In this document: positions 917 through 15,959 of the stretch, piece after piece
How positions within the stretch are numbered: the stretch's first letter is position 1
How the letters are laid out: every line of letters starts with the position of its first letter
From: a virus
Taxonomy: Duplodnaviria > Heunggongvirae > Uroviricota > Caudoviricetes
Strand: one strand, 5' to 3'
Virus record (IMG/VR): IMGVR_UViG_2617270985_000008
DNA: 20,058 nucleotides
The notes under the pieces: generated by a model
What the model saw: the letters and a program-made list of their open reading frames with translations, nothing else
Databases searched by the model: none
What the model was told of the DNA's origin: nothing
Made by a program: the position numbers and the translations under genes

Positions 917-1003
917 GCCCGGATGGTGGAATCGGTAGACACAAGGGATTTAAAATCCCTCGGCGTTCGCGCTGTGCGGGTTCAAGTCCCGCTCCGGGTA
1001 CCA
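917..1003 (+). tRNA. leuZ: tRNA-Leu (anticodon TAA), long variable arm
   Basis: 87-nt sequence GCCCGGATGGTGGAATCGGTAGACACAAGGGATTTAAAATCCC...GTCCCGCTCCGGGTACCA; class II tRNA with extra arm. Confidence 0.95.
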
Positions 1004-1045
1004 TGGGAAAGATAAGAATAAAATCAAAGCAATAAGCAGTGTCGT

Positions 1046-1078
1046 GAAACCACCTTCGGGGGGGTTTTTTTTATTTTT
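1046..1078 (+). terminator. Rho-independent terminator of the tRNA operon
   Basis: GC-rich imperfect hairpin (AAACCACC TTCG GGGGGG) followed by a T8 run and further T tracts. Confidence 0.5.
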
Positions 1079-1541: not shown

Positions 1542-1823
1542 ATGCGATGTGGTTTATTAATGGCAATCTGCCTTTGTTTAGTATCTTTTAGTGGATATGC
1601 AGCAACAGGAAAGTCTGATGCTCAGATCAAAAAAGAAATAATTAAAGAATCCATTGAATCTTATCCAGGCAATTGTGCGTGTCCTTATAATCATGCAAGG
1701 AATGGTAGTAGATGTGGTGGACGCAGTGCATATAGCCGTAATGGAGGGTATGACGTGGTATGTTATGAGGGTGATGTTACCGATGAAATGATCCGGCAAT
1801 GGAAGCAGGAGAATGCTGAGTAA
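1542..1823 (+). CDS. Small secreted Cys-rich hypothetical protein (signal peptide)
   Basis: ORF-track frame 1428..1823; the likely start is ATG 1542 giving MRCGLLMAICLCLVSFSGYA-ATGKSD..., a hydrophobic signal peptide with a probable cleavage site. The mature part has 5 Cys (PGNCACPYNHARNGSRCGGRSAY...VVCY). AT-rich. Function not recognised. Confidence 0.5.
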   Translation: MRCGLLMAICLCLVSFSGYAATGKSDAQIKKEIIKESIESYPGNCACPYNHARNGSRCGGRSAYSRNGGYDVVCYEGDVTDEMIRQWKQENAE

Positions 1824-1899
1824 TCTCTTTTAACAGGTTTGTTGTGCGAGCATTATGTGCCGTTAACGGTACACTAGCTAGTGATTGTTCCAAAAAGAA

Positions 1900-1925
1900 A
1901 ACCCGCAGTTCTTACGCTGCGGGTT
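1900..1925. terminator. Bidirectional hairpin terminator between the convergent secreted-protein and hok-like genes
   Basis: Perfect stem AACCCGCAG / CTGCGGGTT with 8-nt loop; A-run upstream on the + strand (T-run on the - strand) and T-rich downstream. Confidence 0.45.
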
Positions 1926-2011
1926 TGTTGTTCATGTCTGTGAGATAGGGTGCCACTTCAGCCAACCTTAGCAACCGATTGACGGGGGATTGCTCCCCCG
2001 TCGCGGTTTCC

Positions 2012-2152
2012 TTACTGCTTACACTGTAAGAACGCCGCAAACTCCGCTCCCCAGAAGCTCATCCGTATTTCACACAGCGAACCGTGTAGCATCCAGATGA
2101 TGAGGATTACCGTCACGCAGAACGTGATGGCTGTAAGCGATTTTTGCGACAT
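2012..2152 (-). CDS. Hok/Gef-family type I toxin (small membrane peptide), 46 aa
   Basis: Not in the ORF track (under 60 aa). Translation MSQKSLTAITFCVTVILIIWMLHGSLCEIRMSFWGAEFAAFLQCKQ has the Hok/Gef hallmarks: N-terminal TM helix, SLCEIR motif and E(V/F)AAF motif. SD AAGGAG lies 8 nt upstream of the ATG. A perfect 8-bp hairpin (GACGGGGG/CCCCCGTC, 1981-2002) follows the stop, and the upstream leader is GC-rich and structured. Confidence 0.6.
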   Translation of the reverse strand: MSQKSLTAITFCVTVILIIWMLHGSLCEIRMSFWGAEFAAFLQCKQ

Positions 2153-2342
2153 AGCGCTTGCTCCTTTGTTGGAGAGGCGCTAACCTATCACTTGCTTAAG
2201 GTAGATATGTTAGGGCCTCGGTTAAACAGAAATGTTTTCCGGGGCCTTTCCACATCCGGCCTTCGGGTATTCCTCCGACCATCAGCCGAAAGGCACCCGC
2301 GGGTAATCTATCGTTTTTTTGTTACTCCGGCAATTCTGCCTG

Positions 2343-2603
2343 TTAATTCTGAGGTAAAGGCAAACTCATCTGATTGTTTCCCCTGTGTGAAGCTGGCAGC
2401 TCATGCCACGGGATACCTTCCGAAGAGTGAACGCCGGAGGCGTGTTTTGATGTGAATTTATGGAAAGCTTCCAGTGTTGAGAAGCATACGCCGCATTCCA
2501 GGTTGTTACACTGGTAATACTTTTGCCGCACAGTGTTTGAATCGTTTTCCGGACGACTGGTGCGGATTCGGGCAGATGCGCCACAAAGCGGACAACGGAA
2601 CAT
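2343..2603 (-). CDS. ogr: Ogr/Delta-family zinc-finger late-gene transcriptional activator
   Basis: N-terminus MFRCPLCGASARIRTSR...YYQCNNLECGVCF matches the P2 Ogr Cys4 zinc-finger pattern (MFHCPLC...ARTSR...YHQC.N..C). Strong SD GGGAGG 5 nt before the ATG. Confidence 0.85.
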   Translation of the reverse strand: MFRCPLCGASARIRTSRPENDSNTVRQKYYQCNNLECGVCFSTLEAFHKFTSKHASGVHSSEGIPWHELPASHRGNNQMSLPLPQN

Positions 2604-2892: not shown

Positions 2893-4032
2893 TCAGCTGC
2901 AAATTTCGTTGTTGCTGCATGTTATCTCTTCAAGTGCAGCGGCGTTATAATCAACGGAATGATCAACCTGTGATGTAGGTCTGCCAAAAAATTCAACCCC
3001 TGACATAATCATGTTGCCGATATTCTCTCGCTGTTTATCACTGAGCCTGTCCCACCACTCAGGGGATGAATATGTATTTTCGGCCTTTGTGAAGAAAAAA
3101 TACAGAAGGGTATTGAACATCCTGTTAGCTGGGATCTTAATTAGTGTCCGTATAAAACGTCTGATAATTGTTGAAGTTCTCAGCCAACTGAACACTACAT
3201 ATCCCTTACCTCCGCAGGAAAAAGCATTGAAACATACTTGTTCCGCCGACACTGTAAGATCGCTCAAATCCTGAATTTTGGTCCCATCGAAATCCCTCTC
3301 CGGTGAAAGAATTGACGAAACTACAATTGGTAAAGGCTCTGCAAAAGTGAAGATAACACTTTCAATTTCTGAAAATTGCCTGCTAAGTAGGATGCGGTCG
3401 AGGCTAGTTTTAAGATTATTTAATTCAATTATTGCTGCATTTAAGCCACTTTGGTGCTGGTCGATTAATTTCTGAATATAATACTGTTCAACTTGTAGCT
3501 TTCCTTTATCGGCATTTTTAGCAAAATCAGAAGATAGCACTCCCCCTTCTTTGGCATAAATTTCTTTAGACAATGAACGAAACATTAAGGCAAAGCACTG
3601 CTCGTCCGTGCCTGTAAATTTTTCGTTCTCTAGGCATGAAAATAAGATTCTGTCATGAACTGCACAAAATCCTGTAAAAGTGGATGCCTGATTGATACCG
3701 ATCTTCTCGGGAAGCCATTTTCCGTTGTTTCTCATCAGGCTTGCTAAGTTCATTATCACCCCCATGACGTGATTGCTGGAGTCGGCGATCGCCTTAAGGC
3801 TACTGCTCTTAGATATCGTATGCGCCTGAACGATGCGTTTATCACAATCTTCGTGCATGGATGCTGGCGCATAACATGCCTTTCTCTGCGAGAGAGACTT
3901 TGAAAATTTCAGTGCCTCGGCTTTGGATACCGGAGTTTCACGATCTCGACCAAGATGGCACTTTTTATACTTAAGTCCTGAATTACACCAGCACTTATCA
4001 TTTCTTCCTAATTTCACTTTATTGTTTCCCAC
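2893..4032 (-). CDS. Hypothetical protein with N-terminal SEC-C zinc-binding motif (prophage cargo)
   Basis: 379-aa ORF in a markedly AT-rich segment between D and ogr. The N-terminus KLGRNDKCWCNSGLKYKKCH resembles the SecA C-terminal SEC-C metal-binding motif. No Walker A or other catalytic motif recognised. Start is GTG at 4032 (or GTG at 4017); no in-frame ATG before the motif. Confidence 0.7.
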   Translation of the reverse strand: MGNNKVKLGRNDKCWCNSGLKYKKCHLGRDRETPVSKAEALKFSKSLSQRKACYAPASMHEDCDKRIVQAHTISKSSSLKAIADSSNHVMGVIMNLASLMRNNGKWLPEKIGINQASTFTGFCAVHDRILFSCLENEKFTGTDEQCFALMFRSLSKEIYAKEGGVLSSDFAKNADKGKLQVEQYYIQKLIDQHQSGLNAAIIELNNLKTSLDRILLSRQFSEIESVIFTFAEPLPIVVSSILSPERDFDGTKIQDLSDLTVSAEQVCFNAFSCGGKGYVVFSWLRTSTIIRRFIRTLIKIPANRMFNTLLYFFFTKAENTYSSPEWWDRLSDKQRENIGNMIMSGVEFFGRPTSQVDHSVDYNAAALEEITCSNNEICS

Positions 4033-11421: not shown

Positions 11422-11994
11422 GTGCTGTCTTACTTAATGGCAATTCACTTTGTTTTATTTGGGGACTCTACTAATTTAAAAAACTTCTGGAAATATGAAG
11501 TAATTCGGCGGAAACGTATGGATATCTGGAGGCTTTTAAGAGAGAAAAAACAGCGTAACCGGAATTTCCTTTTCTGGTGGCGGTTGGCTAACGAAATGTA
11601 TATTAATGGTAATAAATTACATAAGAAAGCAGCCAAAAAGTTAAACAGTAAAATAATTAACAAATTTGGTTGTGAAATTGGATTGGGCGCAAATATTGGA
11701 AAAGGGTTAACAATTCCCCATCATGCTGGAATTGTTGTTCATTTTGCTGTTGATGCTGGTGAAAATCTGGTGTTACGACAGAATACTACCATTGGACAGA
11801 TAGATGGTGACATGCCTGGTTCAAGAGTAAAAATTGGTAGTAACGTTGATATCGGAGCTAATTGTTGCATCATTGGATTATCACGTAAAATTGGGGATAA
11901 TGTAAAAATAGGTGCAATGTCTTTTATAAATAAAGATATACCATCGAACTGCACATATATAACTAAAAAGAGCGGTGTTGTATTGTATAAATAG
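11422..11994 (+). CDS. Hexapeptide-repeat (left-handed beta-helix) acetyltransferase, serine acetyltransferase/WcaB-like
   Basis: AT-rich ORF; C-terminal half has hexapeptide repeats (IGANIGKGLTIPHHAGIVV…IGSNVDIGANCCIIG…IGDNVKIGAMSFI). Start set at GTG 11422 with AAGGAG 6 nt upstream; the track ORF begins at 11389 without an RBS. Confidence 0.8.
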   Translation: MLSYLMAIHFVLFGDSTNLKNFWKYEVIRRKRMDIWRLLREKKQRNRNFLFWWRLANEMYINGNKLHKKAAKKLNSKIINKFGCEIGLGANIGKGLTIPHHAGIVVHFAVDAGENLVLRQNTTIGQIDGDMPGSRVKIGSNVDIGANCCIIGLSRKIGDNVKIGAMSFINKDIPSNCTYITKKSGVVLYK

Positions 11995-12653: not shown

Positions 12654-13976
12654 TTACGGTGTTTTCTTCGTTAACTCCAGACCTGTGGCCCCCTGCATAT
12701 TATCTGTCAGGGCGGTCAGCCGACCTTTTGAAGCCAGATTAACTGACGATACTGCTGTCCCATCTGACGGTAACGCCCCGATCTCTGATGCTGTTGGCTT
12801 ATTCCTGGAGTTATAGTCCCTTCGCCAGCCAGGAGCATAAGCATCACCATGATTAATATAAGTAAATTGAGCATTAGGGATGCCTTCACCGCTGGATGTA
12901 CTCGGTGTGGTAATGCGTATGGTCATTGCGCCGCGGGTGCCAATAACTTCCACAACAGCACCTGCAAGACAAATACTTCCGCAACCTGTATCTGTAATGA
13001 CCTTATTATTTGCATAAGCCCATGAGCCTTTGCACATCCAGTAAGGATGGTTAAATGCCCCCTGACTCTCTAGCCAAAAAATCAACTGCGCAGTTGTCCA
13101 TGCTTCACTATCTCCACCAATATTCAGCTCTGCACTATATGCACGGCAGGCACCGATATTTTTCGTAAAGGTGTCTTTATCAGAGATATCCTCACCATTC
13201 TTAGCTTTCTGCAGACGTTTTTCAGCATTGTCATAGGCAGCTTTTACTGCATTTGATGTTGCCGCCAGCGTTTCAGATGTACTGTTGGTTGCACTACTAA
13301 GCTGGACAAGGCCTTTTCGCGCTGTTGTGGCATCCTGCGCTGTATATTTTCCGTTAGCAAGATCATACGCGACCTTAACCGCTTTCGGCGTTGCAGCCAG
13401 CGTTTCAGAATCGCTGTTAGTGGCGCTACTGAGTTGAACAAAGCCTTTTGCGGTCAGCGAGGCATCCGGGTGACATCGTGACTGTTCATGCTCTTTCAGT
13501 TTGTTATCCACGTAATCCACTGTGGCCATCACCATGGTGTTATCCACGGTAAGCGCCACAGTGGCAGTGCTGGATACGGTCAGAATGGTGCGAAATGTTT
13601 GTGCACGTCCGGACCCTTCGGCAACGGCTGGCTTGTAACTTTCGGCAGTATTGCCCACCGCGATTAAATCGCCGTGCTCATCAAACACACCAATTTCCCG
13701 GATCCAGAATCCGCCCGTTTCTGGAGGAATAACCAGCTCCGCAATAATGCGGTTCTGATGTGTTGCGTCCAGGATGACGCGATTAACAGTGTGTCGCCAC
13801 ACCTCATGCACCAGACGGGTCTGCTTACTGTCTGGTGTGGGCAACGCGCCGCCACCGTCGCCCACGGCCATATGAGTCAGGCGGACAGGCTTACCATCTG
13901 GCGCGGCTGCCTGAGCTAATTTTTTGGCACCTGTATCGGTGATAACGGTTTTAAATTTTCGTGTTGTGGTACTCAT
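12654..13976 (-). CDS. H: Tail fibre protein (P2 gpH-like)
   Basis: 440 aa; conserved gpH N-terminal domain (…VRLTHMAVGDGGG…RLVHEVWRH…AELVIPPETGGFWIREIG…ESYKP…) and duplicated QLSSATNS.SETLAAT motif; divergent C-terminal domain. Confidence 0.88.
   Translation of the reverse strand: MSTTTRKFKTVITDTGAKKLAQAAAPDGKPVRLTHMAVGDGGGALPTPDSKQTRLVHEVWRHTVNRVILDATHQNRIIAELVIPPETGGFWIREIGVFDEHGDLIAVGNTAESYKPAVAEGSGRAQTFRTILTVSSTATVALTVDNTMVMATVDYVDNKLKEHEQSRCHPDASLTAKGFVQLSSATNSDSETLAATPKAVKVAYDLANGKYTAQDATTARKGLVQLSSATNSTSETLAATSNAVKAAYDNAEKRLQKAKNGEDISDKDTFTKNIGACRAYSAELNIGGDSEAWTTAQLIFWLESQGAFNHPYWMCKGSWAYANNKVITDTGCGSICLAGAVVEVIGTRGAMTIRITTPSTSSGEGIPNAQFTYINHGDAYAPGWRRDYNSRNKPTASEIGALPSDGTAVSSVNLASKGRLTALTDNMQGATGLELTKKTP
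13230..13445 (-). repeat. Intragenic tandem repeat in the tail-fibre gene (two copies, 132-nt period)
   Basis: Peptide repeats GFVQLSSATNSDSETLAATPKAVKVAYD (aa 178-205) and GLVQLSSATNSTSETLAATSNAVKAAYD (aa 222-249); the DNA copies are visibly similar. Confidence 0.6.
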
Positions 13977-13978
13977 GC

Positions 13979-14509
13979 TTAATCGTCCGGATAAATGGTA
14001 ATAACTTCACCGTCATGAGTTGCCGCCGCTGCAAAAATATCCCCCGGAATTTCCTGAATGATATTCAGCCCTGTCATGTGGCGGCTGACCGGACGGGCAT
14101 CAGCAATCAACCGCTCCATTTCCAGATACATTTCCTCCGTCACGCCACTGTCCAGTGTGCCGACTTCAACGGTAAATGTTCCCGGTTCTCCGCCGAACTC
14201 CCACCACTCAGACACGCGAATGAGGTATCCCAGCGGCTCAATGGCCCTGCGCAGTGCGCTGATGGTCCCTTTGTGTCGGTGTATCAGCCATGCATCACGA
14301 ATCACCTGTCGTTTTGTCTCTTCCGGCCAGTTGCGATCCCAGCGGTCAACGGAAAATGCCCAGGCGAGATAAGGCAGCAGGTGCACCGGGCAGGTGTCCG
14401 GCGACCACAGCGTGTTGAGGTCTACCGGGATGTCTGTAATGCGCGTTCCGACAGCTTCGGCACAACGCATGAAACTGCTGGCTGATGGTGGTAACAGTGA
14501 ATTACTCAT
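13979..14509 (-). CDS. I: Baseplate protein gpI-like
   Basis: 176 aa from ATG 14509 (MSNSLLPP…), overlapping the J stop in an ATGAGTAA arrangement; motifs WSPDTCP..LLPYLAWAFSVDRWD…GYLI…EWWE…PGTF…EMERLIADA…SRH match gpI. The track ORF starts 11 codons earlier. Confidence 0.85.
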   Translation of the reverse strand: MSNSLLPPSASSFMRCAEAVGTRITDIPVDLNTLWSPDTCPVHLLPYLAWAFSVDRWDRNWPEETKRQVIRDAWLIHRHKGTISALRRAIEPLGYLIRVSEWWEFGGEPGTFTVEVGTLDSGVTEEMYLEMERLIADARPVSRHMTGLNIIQEIPGDIFAAAATHDGEVITIYPDD

Positions 14510-15257
14510 TGCGCCCACCTTCGCTGATGGTGAACGACTCACAGCGCGCCGCCTGTATGTCGCTGATGGCCATATTCTGTGTGGGTTCGATTATCTCCAC
14601 GCGTTGCACACCGTGCACATGCAGTGCGGCAGCAATGGCGGACAACGCCACGTCCTGACCGATAAGCCCCTGCTCAGCCAGCCACTTCCTGAACGACGAT
14701 TCAGCCGCCGCCAGAATAGGTTCGGATTCCGGGCCGGGGTAAAAGTACAGTTTTGCATTCAGCCGCCATGTCACGATTCTGGCGCTCTGTACCGTCAGGC
14801 GGTCGGCCACCGGGCGGGTATCCTCTGCATTCAGAACGGCGCGAACGGTATTAAGCAACGCCTCCGTTGCTGTGCCGTCGCCTTCAGTGGACAGGATGGA
14901 AACCGTCACATTTGCCGGAGACGGACTGATAGCCCGCGCATCACGCACCAGACCGCTGGCGCTGCGGGCAAAATACTCGTATGCACCTGACGGGCCAGCA
15001 ACACTCAGGCCATCGTACGCCCGCTGCGCCCGCAGTCTCAGCGAGGTGTCACTTTCCATCACTGCGTCGGTGGTATCCGTTGCCGGAGTGATGGTCAGGC
15101 GCTTTGTGTTCATATTGCCCGCGAGGTTGTCCAGGTCTGTCCCGGCGCTGTGGCTTAACATGCAGGCGCGTGCCCCCTCATTGACCCGCTGGCGTAACGA
15201 GCGTTTCACGGTTATGGAGTTCTGATGAGCAGAAAAAATAAAAAAGTGCGCATGAGT
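14502..15257 (-). pseudogene. J: Baseplate assembly protein gpJ, 5'-truncated remnant
   Basis: Translation (…RQRVNEGARA…MESDTSLRLRAQRAYDGLSVAG…RPVADRLTVQSA…YFYPGPESEPI…HVHGVQRVE…) matches roughly the C-terminal 220 aa of gpJ. Homology stops near 15210-15250, where the opposite-strand Q start abuts; about 85 N-terminal codons are missing. Confidence 0.75.
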
Positions 15258-15959
15258 TCACGCATTGATCTCGCTGATGCGCTCAGGAAAGAATCATCGC
15301 TCAGTGCATTCACATTTGATGGTCCTTATCGCCTGACCGGGCATGACCTGCTGGACAATATGTACTGTGCTGATAACGGGCGGTGGTATGAAACCCCGGT
15401 GGACTGGTACGGTCTGGCAAGAGCCGCCCGGCAAACGTCCTGGCATCAGTCTGCGCTTTACTTTAAGCGCAATGTATTGCTCGGTTGCTACATCCCGCAC
15501 CCGCTGCTTTCCCGGCAGGATTTCTCGGCGCTGGCGCTGGACTGGTTTGTGTTCGGTAACGCATTCCTTGAGCTTCGAAGCAATATGCTCGGCGAACCGC
15601 TTAAATTACGGCACGCCCTGGCGAAATACATGCGACGCGGAAGCGATCTTGAATCATGGTGGTATGTGCAGGATGGCAAGGATGCGTTTCAGTTTCGCCC
15701 AGGCAAAGTGTGCCACCTGATGAATCCGGACATTAACCAGGAAATCTACGGCATGCCGGAATATCTCGGCGCATTACTCTCGGCCAGCCTGTCTCATTCG
15801 GCGGACATGTTCAGAAAACTGTATTACGACAACGGATCCCACGCCGGGTGCATCATCTACATCGGTGCAGCGCAGGTAAACCGCGAAAGCATGGACTCCC
15901 TGAAAGAAACGCTACAGGGTGCGCGTGGTGGTGGTGCGTTTCACGTCCTCTGGAGGTGA
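15225..15959 (+). pseudogene. Q: Portal protein gpQ, 3'-truncated remnant
   Basis: 244-aa ORF with portal motifs (…NGRWYE…YFKRNVL…IPHPLLS.QDF…FGNAFLE…DINQEIYGMPEYL…YYDNGSHAG…) corresponding to roughly the N-terminal 70% of a P2-type portal; ends in unrelated sequence. Confidence 0.75.

Follow-up and report, generated by a model that had tools for sequence, protein, structure and literature searches.

Long-range closure of the transcript and refolding of its 5' end are among the features that define hok mRNAs (PMC9841398). In the hok/sok (parB) locus of plasmid R1, translation of mok up to the hok Shine-Dalgarno (SD) sequence is required, and toxicity is lost when the mok start codon is mutated or when mok stops prematurely ahead of hok (PMC9841398). 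A prophage-borne hok/sok locus, hokW-sokW of the Stx2 prophage Sp5, has also been characterised, and toxin and antitoxin activity were both demonstrated there (PMC8621323). A 2025-26 preprint has catalogued 32,532 Hok loci, 6290 of them in IMG/VR phages; it reports an enrichment in prophages, gives cluster 72 as a high-abundance Hok cluster (Table S2), and lists the residues kept in more than 80% of Hok peptides as M1, C16, T18, L30, C31, E32 and E41 in the numbering of the family logo (bioRxiv 10.1101/2025.08.07.668861). The 45 peptides tested in that work include 72_1621 and 72_1589, and the only non-toxic ones are 19_179, 60_1482 and 69_1540.

The DNA analysed here (the window) is the whole 20,058-nucleotide stretch of IMG/VR virus record IMGVR_UViG_2617270985_000008. 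Close to one end it very probably carries a type I toxin-antitoxin cassette of the hok/Sok type, as cargo between ogr and att of a P88-like (Xuanwuvirus, P2-like) prophage in leuZ. The setting of the cassette was defined by the following features.

949 to 1071, plus strand: att direct repeat on the leuZ side, 123 bp (3' part of tRNA-Leu and terminator), repeated at L003 38283-38404 beside the integrase
2343 to 2603, minus strand: late activator gene of the P2-like prophage, coding for an ogr/Delta-like zinc-finger protein (Pfam Ogr_Delta, 52.4 bits; RefSeq WP_000488107.1), with its stop preceding the hok -35 box by 10 nt
near 12673, 15196 to 15210 and 15937 to 15941 (window 12673-15941): deletion junctions of the remnant prophage, from comparison with NZ_CP028112

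Homology to prophage-free K-12 ends at about 1071-1077 of the window, and the DNA to the right of about 1072 is prophage. In the empty site of K-12, leuZ directly adjoins yecA and the hok cassette is absent, while strain RM8385 carries a 37-kb P2-like prophage between leuZ and yecA, bounded by the 123-bp direct repeat. The cassette lies about 820 bp inside the att repeat, between ogr and att. The initial annotation had asked whether this was host DNA or a stabilising passenger and had proposed looking for the locus next to leuZ in strains lacking the prophage. Because the cassette is inside the att repeats, is missing from the K-12 leuZ-yecA site and occurs in the genomes of free phages, including the active phages P88 and phiSM, it is to be read as a passenger, that is, prophage cargo and not host DNA. 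From att to the cassette (1072-1891) the window and P88 have different sequences, so that this end of the phage is mosaic.

Compared with the 37-kb copy in NZ_CP028112, the window prophage is a remnant of about 19 kb. Missing from it are 766 bp of the tail-fibre gene, about 10.8 kb with baseplate, lysis, head and terminase genes, and about 6.5 kb with part of the portal gene, ParM-like genes and replication gene A. The loss against the intact relative amounts to about 17 kb and takes in baseplate, lysis, capsid, terminase and replication genes. The exact junctions of these deletions were found in none of the complete E. coli genomes in the collection. Several other observations were made in the window. 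At the att/prophage junction (1061-1106), eleven substitutions in 46 bases separate the window from two other strains, all of them making G or T runs, for example GGGTGGTTTTTTCGTATTTGT to GGGGGGGTTTTTTTTATTTTT; a sequencing artefact and local hypermutation are both conceivable. A 93-aa open reading frame between att and the cassette (1542-1823, plus strand; WP_001303543.1, PHROG 27544) is present beside leuZ in O157:H7, whereas P88 has other DNA at this place and lacks it. A 379-aa cargo gene between ogr and gene D (2893-4032, minus strand), annotated as "YecA family protein", has an N-terminal SEC-C motif as the only domain found, weak PADLOC matches to E2-like models that cover the same stretch of 25 residues, and no PHROG match. 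A gene for a hexapeptide-repeat acetyltransferase (11422-11994, plus strand), which RefSeq annotates as serine O-acetyltransferase, sits as an insert among the tail genes and is likely another cargo piece, and the tail-fibre assembly gene contains a match to Rfam IS009 (RF02111; 12075-12273, minus strand) of 192 bits, well above the gathering score.

The cassette is encoded on the minus strand, directly downstream of ogr, and was resolved into the following elements.

2305 to 2333, minus strand: putative hok promoter, read from the sequence, with -35 TTGCCG (2333-2328), a 17-nt spacer and -10 TAGATT (2310-2305)
1893 to 2298, minus strand: predicted full-length hok mRNA of about 406 nt, with +1 placed at G2298 by alignment to Rfam RF01794 and to relatives
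2284 to 2298, minus strand: 5' closing element (tac-like), GGGUGCCUUUCGGCU, paired with 1948-1963 in the minimum free energy (MFE) structure
2187 to 2202, minus strand: hypervariable patch, comprising the Sok 5'-tail target and the mok stop region, paired with 1965-1979 in the full-length RNA
2153 to 2182, minus strand: hairpin sequestering the hok SD (AGCGC-CUCC ... GGAG-GCGCU), predicted by the energy model only
2012 to 2152, minus strand: coding sequence of the Hok-family toxin, 46 aa, MSQKSLTAITFCVTVILIIWMLHGSLCEIRMSFWGAEFAAFLQCKQ, from Pfam, PHROG and RefSeq matches
1980 to 2003, minus strand: G+C-rich hairpin directly 3' of the hok stop, equivalent in position to the R1 hok 3' hairpin by fold and alignment
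1965 to 1979, minus strand: 3'-UTR partner of the hypervariable patch, from fold and covariation
1948 to 1963, minus strand: 3' fold-back element (fbi-like), GGCUGAAGUGGCACCC, partner of 2284-2298
1893 to 1926, minus strand: factor-independent terminator of the hok mRNA, found by sequence scan, with a stem at 1899-1926 followed by the U-rich tail UUUUCUUUU

The 46-aa peptide had been noticed for its N-terminal transmembrane helix and its SLCEIR and EFAAF motifs, and these were all present, the hydrophobic stretch covering residues 7-23. An SD sequence (AAGGAG, 2161-2166) precedes the ATG by 8 nt. Pfam PF01848 (HOK_GEF) matched residues 7-44 with 30.1 bits (gathering score 22, E 3.7e-7), and PHROG 251, "MokW-like host killing", matched with 82.8 bits (E 2.5e-23), both far above chance, so that the lack of Hok similarity named as a refutation of the family assignment did not occur. 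With 46 aa and an N-terminal transmembrane helix the peptide is within the size range of about 40-55 aa of the family, and it was also read against the family logo described in the preprint (bioRxiv 10.1101/2025.08.07.668861). All seven residues conserved across the family were found, as M1, C12, T14, L26-C27-E28 and E37, and the second cysteine, C44, corresponds to logo position 48. The best NCBIfam match was the HokA equivalog NF007290, with 35.8 bits far under its cut-off of 89, and the Hok subfamily model NF007279 gave 23.6 bits (cut-off 73); judged by these scores the peptide is a member of neither HokA nor the R1-type Hok subfamily. Against distant relatives the dN/dS of the reading frame was 0.13-0.30, which indicates purifying selection on the peptide.

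At the gathering threshold Rfam gave no match in the hok region, and the sok match was seen only in E-value mode. In that mode RF01794 aligned end to end with 2298-2142 on the minus strand (46.7 bits, E 3.4e-9), so that the covariance-model search which had been suggested returned a full-length match that stays below the gathering score of 59. Applied to the R1-type plasmid locus, the same model matched the hok strand with 87.2 bits and covered it from the mRNA 5' end to the hok AUG, while the tested members of the 46-aa subfamily scored 42-57 bits, all under the gathering score. RF01794 is thus a model of the hok leader, and its alignment puts +1 at G2298 and gives a leader length of 146 nt, in agreement with the relatives; the leader had been described as GC-rich and about 190 nt long, and the latter figure is the distance from ogr to hok.

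The putative hok promoter agrees with the consensus at 8 of 12 positions, which is under the threshold of the promoter scanner. Because the scanner found no sigma-70-like site for either the hok or the Sok promoter, both were assigned by positional homology and conservation. In the relatives from E. coli, E. albertii, Citrobacter, Salmonella and Klebsiella the hok -10 box (TAGATT, TAGAAT or TAGAGT) always lies 6 nt from GGGTGCC, and the -35 box is not conserved. The 406-nt transcript folded with an MFE of -175 kcal/mol (z = -8.08 against shuffled sequences). In the fold of the full-length RNA nucleotides 1-15 paired with nucleotides 336-351, and when the 3' partner was deleted in silico the 5' closing element refolded onto nucleotides 19-34, as in the R1 model.

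Covariation was analysed in an alignment of 54 relatives, 52 of them distinct, drawn from phages and prophages of E. coli and from E. albertii, Citrobacter, Salmonella and Klebsiella. As 80 viral loci were nearly identical in protein, six more distant loci had been added by exact-protein look-up and from a phage record. In the consensus structure 98.9% of the cells were paired, compared with 35-44% in controls with slid partners, and 14 pairs were compensatory, that is, changed on both sides, a number reached in 0 of 500 shuffles. The tac/fbi closure (alignment columns 1-14 with 359-374) contains 12 pairs that were kept in 99-100% of the 52 distinct sequences, four of them changed on both sides; in its second helix (columns 10-14 with 359-364) four of five pairs were compensatory. 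All of the compensatory changes in this closure came from one Salmonella/Klebsiella/Citrobacter clade and represent few independent events. The hairpin after the stop had been described as a perfect hairpin of 8 bp; it is present at 1980-2003 with 9-10 pairs, and in the alignment 99.8% of its cells were paired and five of nine pairs had changed on both sides. For the helix between 2187-2202 and 1965-1979 pairing was 85.8%, 6 of 14 pairs were compensatory, and none of 500 shuffles reached the score. The terminator, a hairpin at 1899-1926 with a U-rich tail, was found as had been described. The hok mRNA architecture that the initial annotation had recognised is borne out by the 5'-3' closure, the post-stop hairpin and the terminator, all three of which show compensatory changes in relatives. 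Among loci otherwise 92-100% identical, the patch at 2187-2202 (alignment columns 95-112) is the most variable stretch of the cassette, and its 3'-UTR partner co-varies with it, which suggests diversification of antitoxin specificity.

An antisense RNA had been expected on the plus strand at about 2160-2320. A promoter and a hairpin were predicted within this bracket from position and conservation, as follows.

2158 to 2186, plus strand: putative Sok promoter, with -35 TTGCTC (2158-2163), a 17-nt spacer and -10 TAACCT (2181-2186), overlapping the hok SD and start
2193 to 2250, plus strand: predicted Sok-like RNA of about 57 nt, with approximate ends, from position and conservation only

The putative promoter has the position of TTGCGC-N17-TATCCT in the R1-type locus. 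It is weak (6 of 12 consensus positions) and was missed by the scanner. Its -10 box (AGGTTA in the sense strand) was nearly invariant in the 54 relatives and reads TATCCT in one Salmonella copy. The predicted RNA would begin about 7 nt after the -10 box with a variable tail of about 20 nt, followed by a hairpin (2214-2221/2239-2246, extendable to 2212/2248) and UUU. In the consensus fold of 31 distinct antisense sequences a 10-pair stem was kept, with one compensatory pair. A Sok-like antisense gene is predicted on these grounds at about 2193-2250 of the plus strand.

The overlapping mok frame was examined in the leader.

2196 to 2282, minus strand: short upstream open reading frame in the mok frame, 28 codons from ATG 2282 or 19 from ATG 2255, closed by TAA 2196-2198

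This frame is in the -1 register to hok, and its internal ATG 2255 has GAAGG upstream. The TAA lies 44 nt before the hok ATG and is followed by no restart codon, and all three frames of this copy are closed upstream of the hok SD; the earlier remark that no intact mok-like frame could be made out is correct for this copy. In the 47 distinct leaders of the closest relatives the frame was open through the hok start in 13 (61-87 codons, mostly 70) and closed in 34, and phage P88 has a closed allele. An unconstrained stretch of 43 codons would be free of stops by chance in about 13% of cases by our own estimate; with 13 open variants out of 47 the frame therefore looks to be under weak or no selection. 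In the energy model the GGAG of the SD is paired with CUCC in the full-length RNA and in every 3'-truncated form (probability of being unpaired 0.00), so that this model shows no route to Hok translation. As the mok frame is closed, such stops abolish toxicity in R1, and the SD stays paired, Hok output from the native locus is doubtful; it is probably low in this copy, and the cassette may be attenuated.

The share of open frames is roughly that of an unconstrained frame, and the closed allele occurs in an active phage, P88. It is conceivable, though on the whole doubtful, that the textbook mok coupling is dispensable or routinely lost in the phage-borne Hok cluster. Translation of Hok may then be triggered by an RNA switch alone, with the target hairpin competing with the SD hairpin. 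Alternatively, many copies may mainly be Sok donors whose specificity is set by the hypervariable Sok tail and target patch. A switch independent of mok in which 3' trimming frees the SD was also considered; since the SD stayed paired in every truncated form of the energy model, it is retained only within this doubtful reading.

For the cassette read as a hok/Sok system, the course of events would be as follows. Transcription from the promoter at 2333-2305 would give the hok mRNA of about 406 nt placed by the alignment. The full-length RNA would be locked by two helices, both supported by covariation: the first 15 nt with 1948-1963, and the Sok-target patch with 1965-1979. The hok ribosome-binding site would be held in its local hairpin according to the energy model. 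The closing element would be lost through slow 3' trimming, upon which the 5' end would refold as in R1, a refolding that was reproduced in silico. The Sok-like RNA of about 57 nt (2193-2250, plus strand) would pair with the leader and block or destroy the processed mRNA. If translated, the 46-aa Hok would insert into the inner membrane and kill or arrest the cell; a V16A variant is reported as toxic upon overexpression in the preprint.

Four readings of the role of this cassette are not exclusive but are sub-hypotheses on the same DNA. The cassette may, though this is less likely than not, be a silenced relic with intact RNA from which no Hok is made, because the closed mok frame leaves no upstream ribosome to open the SD hairpin, and which persists by hitch-hiking or as a donor of Sok. 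The TAA at 2196-2198 without a restart codon, the effect of premature mok stops in R1 (PMC9841398), the SD that is paired in all modelled forms and the closed frame in 34 of 47 leader variants are all in line with this, as is earlier work, cited in the preprint, in which chromosomal hok loci were inactive in post-segregational killing (bioRxiv 10.1101/2025.08.07.668861). Against silencing stand the purifying selection on Hok (dN/dS 0.13-0.30), the closed allele in the active, inducible phage P88, and RNA control elements that have all been kept with compensatory changes, which is hard to explain without any translation. The same closed frame argues against strong killing and thus against an addiction or stabilising module, in which loss of the prophage would remove the unstable Sok and the stable hok mRNA would kill cured cells and so retain the defective prophage. 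Such a module would fit the classic role of hok/sok on R1 (PMC9841398), the position of the cassette at the extreme end of the element and its retention in a prophage that has lost about 17 kb of essential genes, but excision of integrated prophages is rare and the single-copy situation is unlike plasmid loss. Moreover, O157:H7 is viable although an IS30 event has removed its hok, its ogr and part of gene D, and we consider addiction possible but doubtful. In E. coli O157:H7 TB21-1 (L098 5244-6790) the same prophage family is found at leuZ, with an IS30 element in place of the hok cassette, of ogr, of the SEC-C gene and of part of gene D, and homology to the window stops at 1874.

A helper function in lysis, with Hok made after SOS induction or late-gene activation and speeding membrane damage and phage release, would suit a cassette directly downstream of the late-gene activator ogr on the same strand, and deletion of hokW-sokW halves the release of Sp5 phage (PMC8621323). 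HokW is, however, a different, 51-aa HokD-like paralogue, and the window prophage has no lysis, capsid, terminase or replication genes, so that a role in phage release is impossible in this copy; as a general reading it is unlikely. P2-like phages often carry defence cargo, and the cassette might accordingly be an abortive-infection or exclusion module that protects the lysogen. R1 hok/sok has been implicated in phage defence, according to work cited in PMC8621323, but the PADLOC search gave no defence-system match for Hok, and by a section heading of the preprint there is no enrichment of hok in the vicinity of defence systems (bioRxiv 10.1101/2025.08.07.668861), which makes an anti-phage role quite improbable. 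For a host chromosomal gene or a chance small open reading frame nothing speaks but the nearness to the prophage edge, and the position inside the att repeats, the empty K-12 site, the presence in free phage genomes and the family-level Pfam and PHROG matches refute it for practical purposes.

The reading as a prophage-borne hok/Sok cassette agrees with the distribution of the locus. It had been taken as unannotated, which does not apply to public records: many complete E. coli genomes contain the 501 bases around it with 100% identity, and there RefSeq annotates the coding sequence as WP_000078920.1, "Hok/Gef family protein", beside an ogr/Delta-like gene. In total, 1549 of 5426 complete genomes matched the locus. 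Phage P88 (Xuanwuvirus, P2-like) carries it with 98% identity (window 1892-2350), annotated as hok/gef family protein, and the homology with P88 stops at 1892. The phages Chuche, P884B11, 500465-2 and PhiR44_2 and Citrobacter phage phiSM carry the locus at 92-94% identity, and many Stx phages have an 83% copy (1948-2319). Viral contigs contained 311 relatives. The protein search gave 68 relatives, from E. coli, Shigella, Salmonella and Klebsiella oxytoca, and all those named by their source were Hok/Gef family protein or HokA. An alignment-based search of genome contigs gave seven loci; three are labelled Planococcaceae, Vagococcus and Xanthomonas, and these we take to be enterobacterial contamination. 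In Salmonella enterica tandem pairs of the 46-aa subfamily were seen about 490 bp apart (L093 3001-3631 and L094 3001-3635), each copy with its own leader and with different hypervariable patches. A further copy (L095) has lost the promoter and the 5' closing element. The locus is therefore a known, annotated and abundant Hok/Sok cassette and not a new one, and the closed mok helper frame is the only mildly unusual trait of this copy.

The cassette is thereby settled as phage cargo at the leuZ integration site, and beyond that its significance is small. The case illustrates that a type I toxin cassette can rightly be spotted by reading the sequence without tools. It also shows that the Rfam sok model at its gathering score misses an abundant phage-borne subfamily, whose antisense RNA consequently goes unannotated, and the non-conserved mok frame in the 46-aa subfamily is relevant to predicting whether such loci are live toxins.

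In comparison with known systems, HokA of E. coli K-12 has the C-terminal AAFLxCK motif in common with the window Hok. Its model was the best NCBIfam match, far off the cut-off, and in the catalogue HokA falls into a different 60%-identity cluster (93) (bioRxiv 10.1101/2025.08.07.668861). The locus hokW-sokW is likewise prophage-borne, but it was rejected as the characterised homologue, as HokW is a 51-aa HokD/Gef-like peptide (MKQQKAM...) and the window Hok has 46 aa (PMC8621323). The homologue of the window locus in Stx phages (83% nucleotide identity in Oslovirus Lyz12581Vzw) is a gene separate from hokW. With R1 hok/sok the window locus has the same layout of promoter, leader of about 150-170 nt, tac/fbi closure, post-stop hairpin, fbi and terminator; the antisense promoter, which is putative in the window, overlaps the hok SD and start, and both peptides contain the LCE and E..AAF motifs. 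The two differ in that the peptides (46 and 52 aa) are 39% identical over 31 residues, the position of the R1 mok AUG is AUA in the window and no window frame reaches hok, and the window locus, unlike the R1-type locus, is below the Rfam gathering score. R1 is also plasmid-borne whereas the window locus is phage-borne, and the window subfamily is found in 34 plasmid records against at least 5000 for the R1 type. In the catalogue, cluster 72 includes 72_1621, which is the window peptide with V16A, and 72_1589, which is the Stx-phage copy. The leader of the window has a 1-nt deletion relative to its relatives (GGAGG, not GGAGGG), common to only one other of the 47 variants. From cluster 72, WP_000078920.1 and gp52 of P88 nothing of substance separates the window locus: the RefSeq protein has the same sequence, and in P2-like phages the locus likewise lies between ogr and att.
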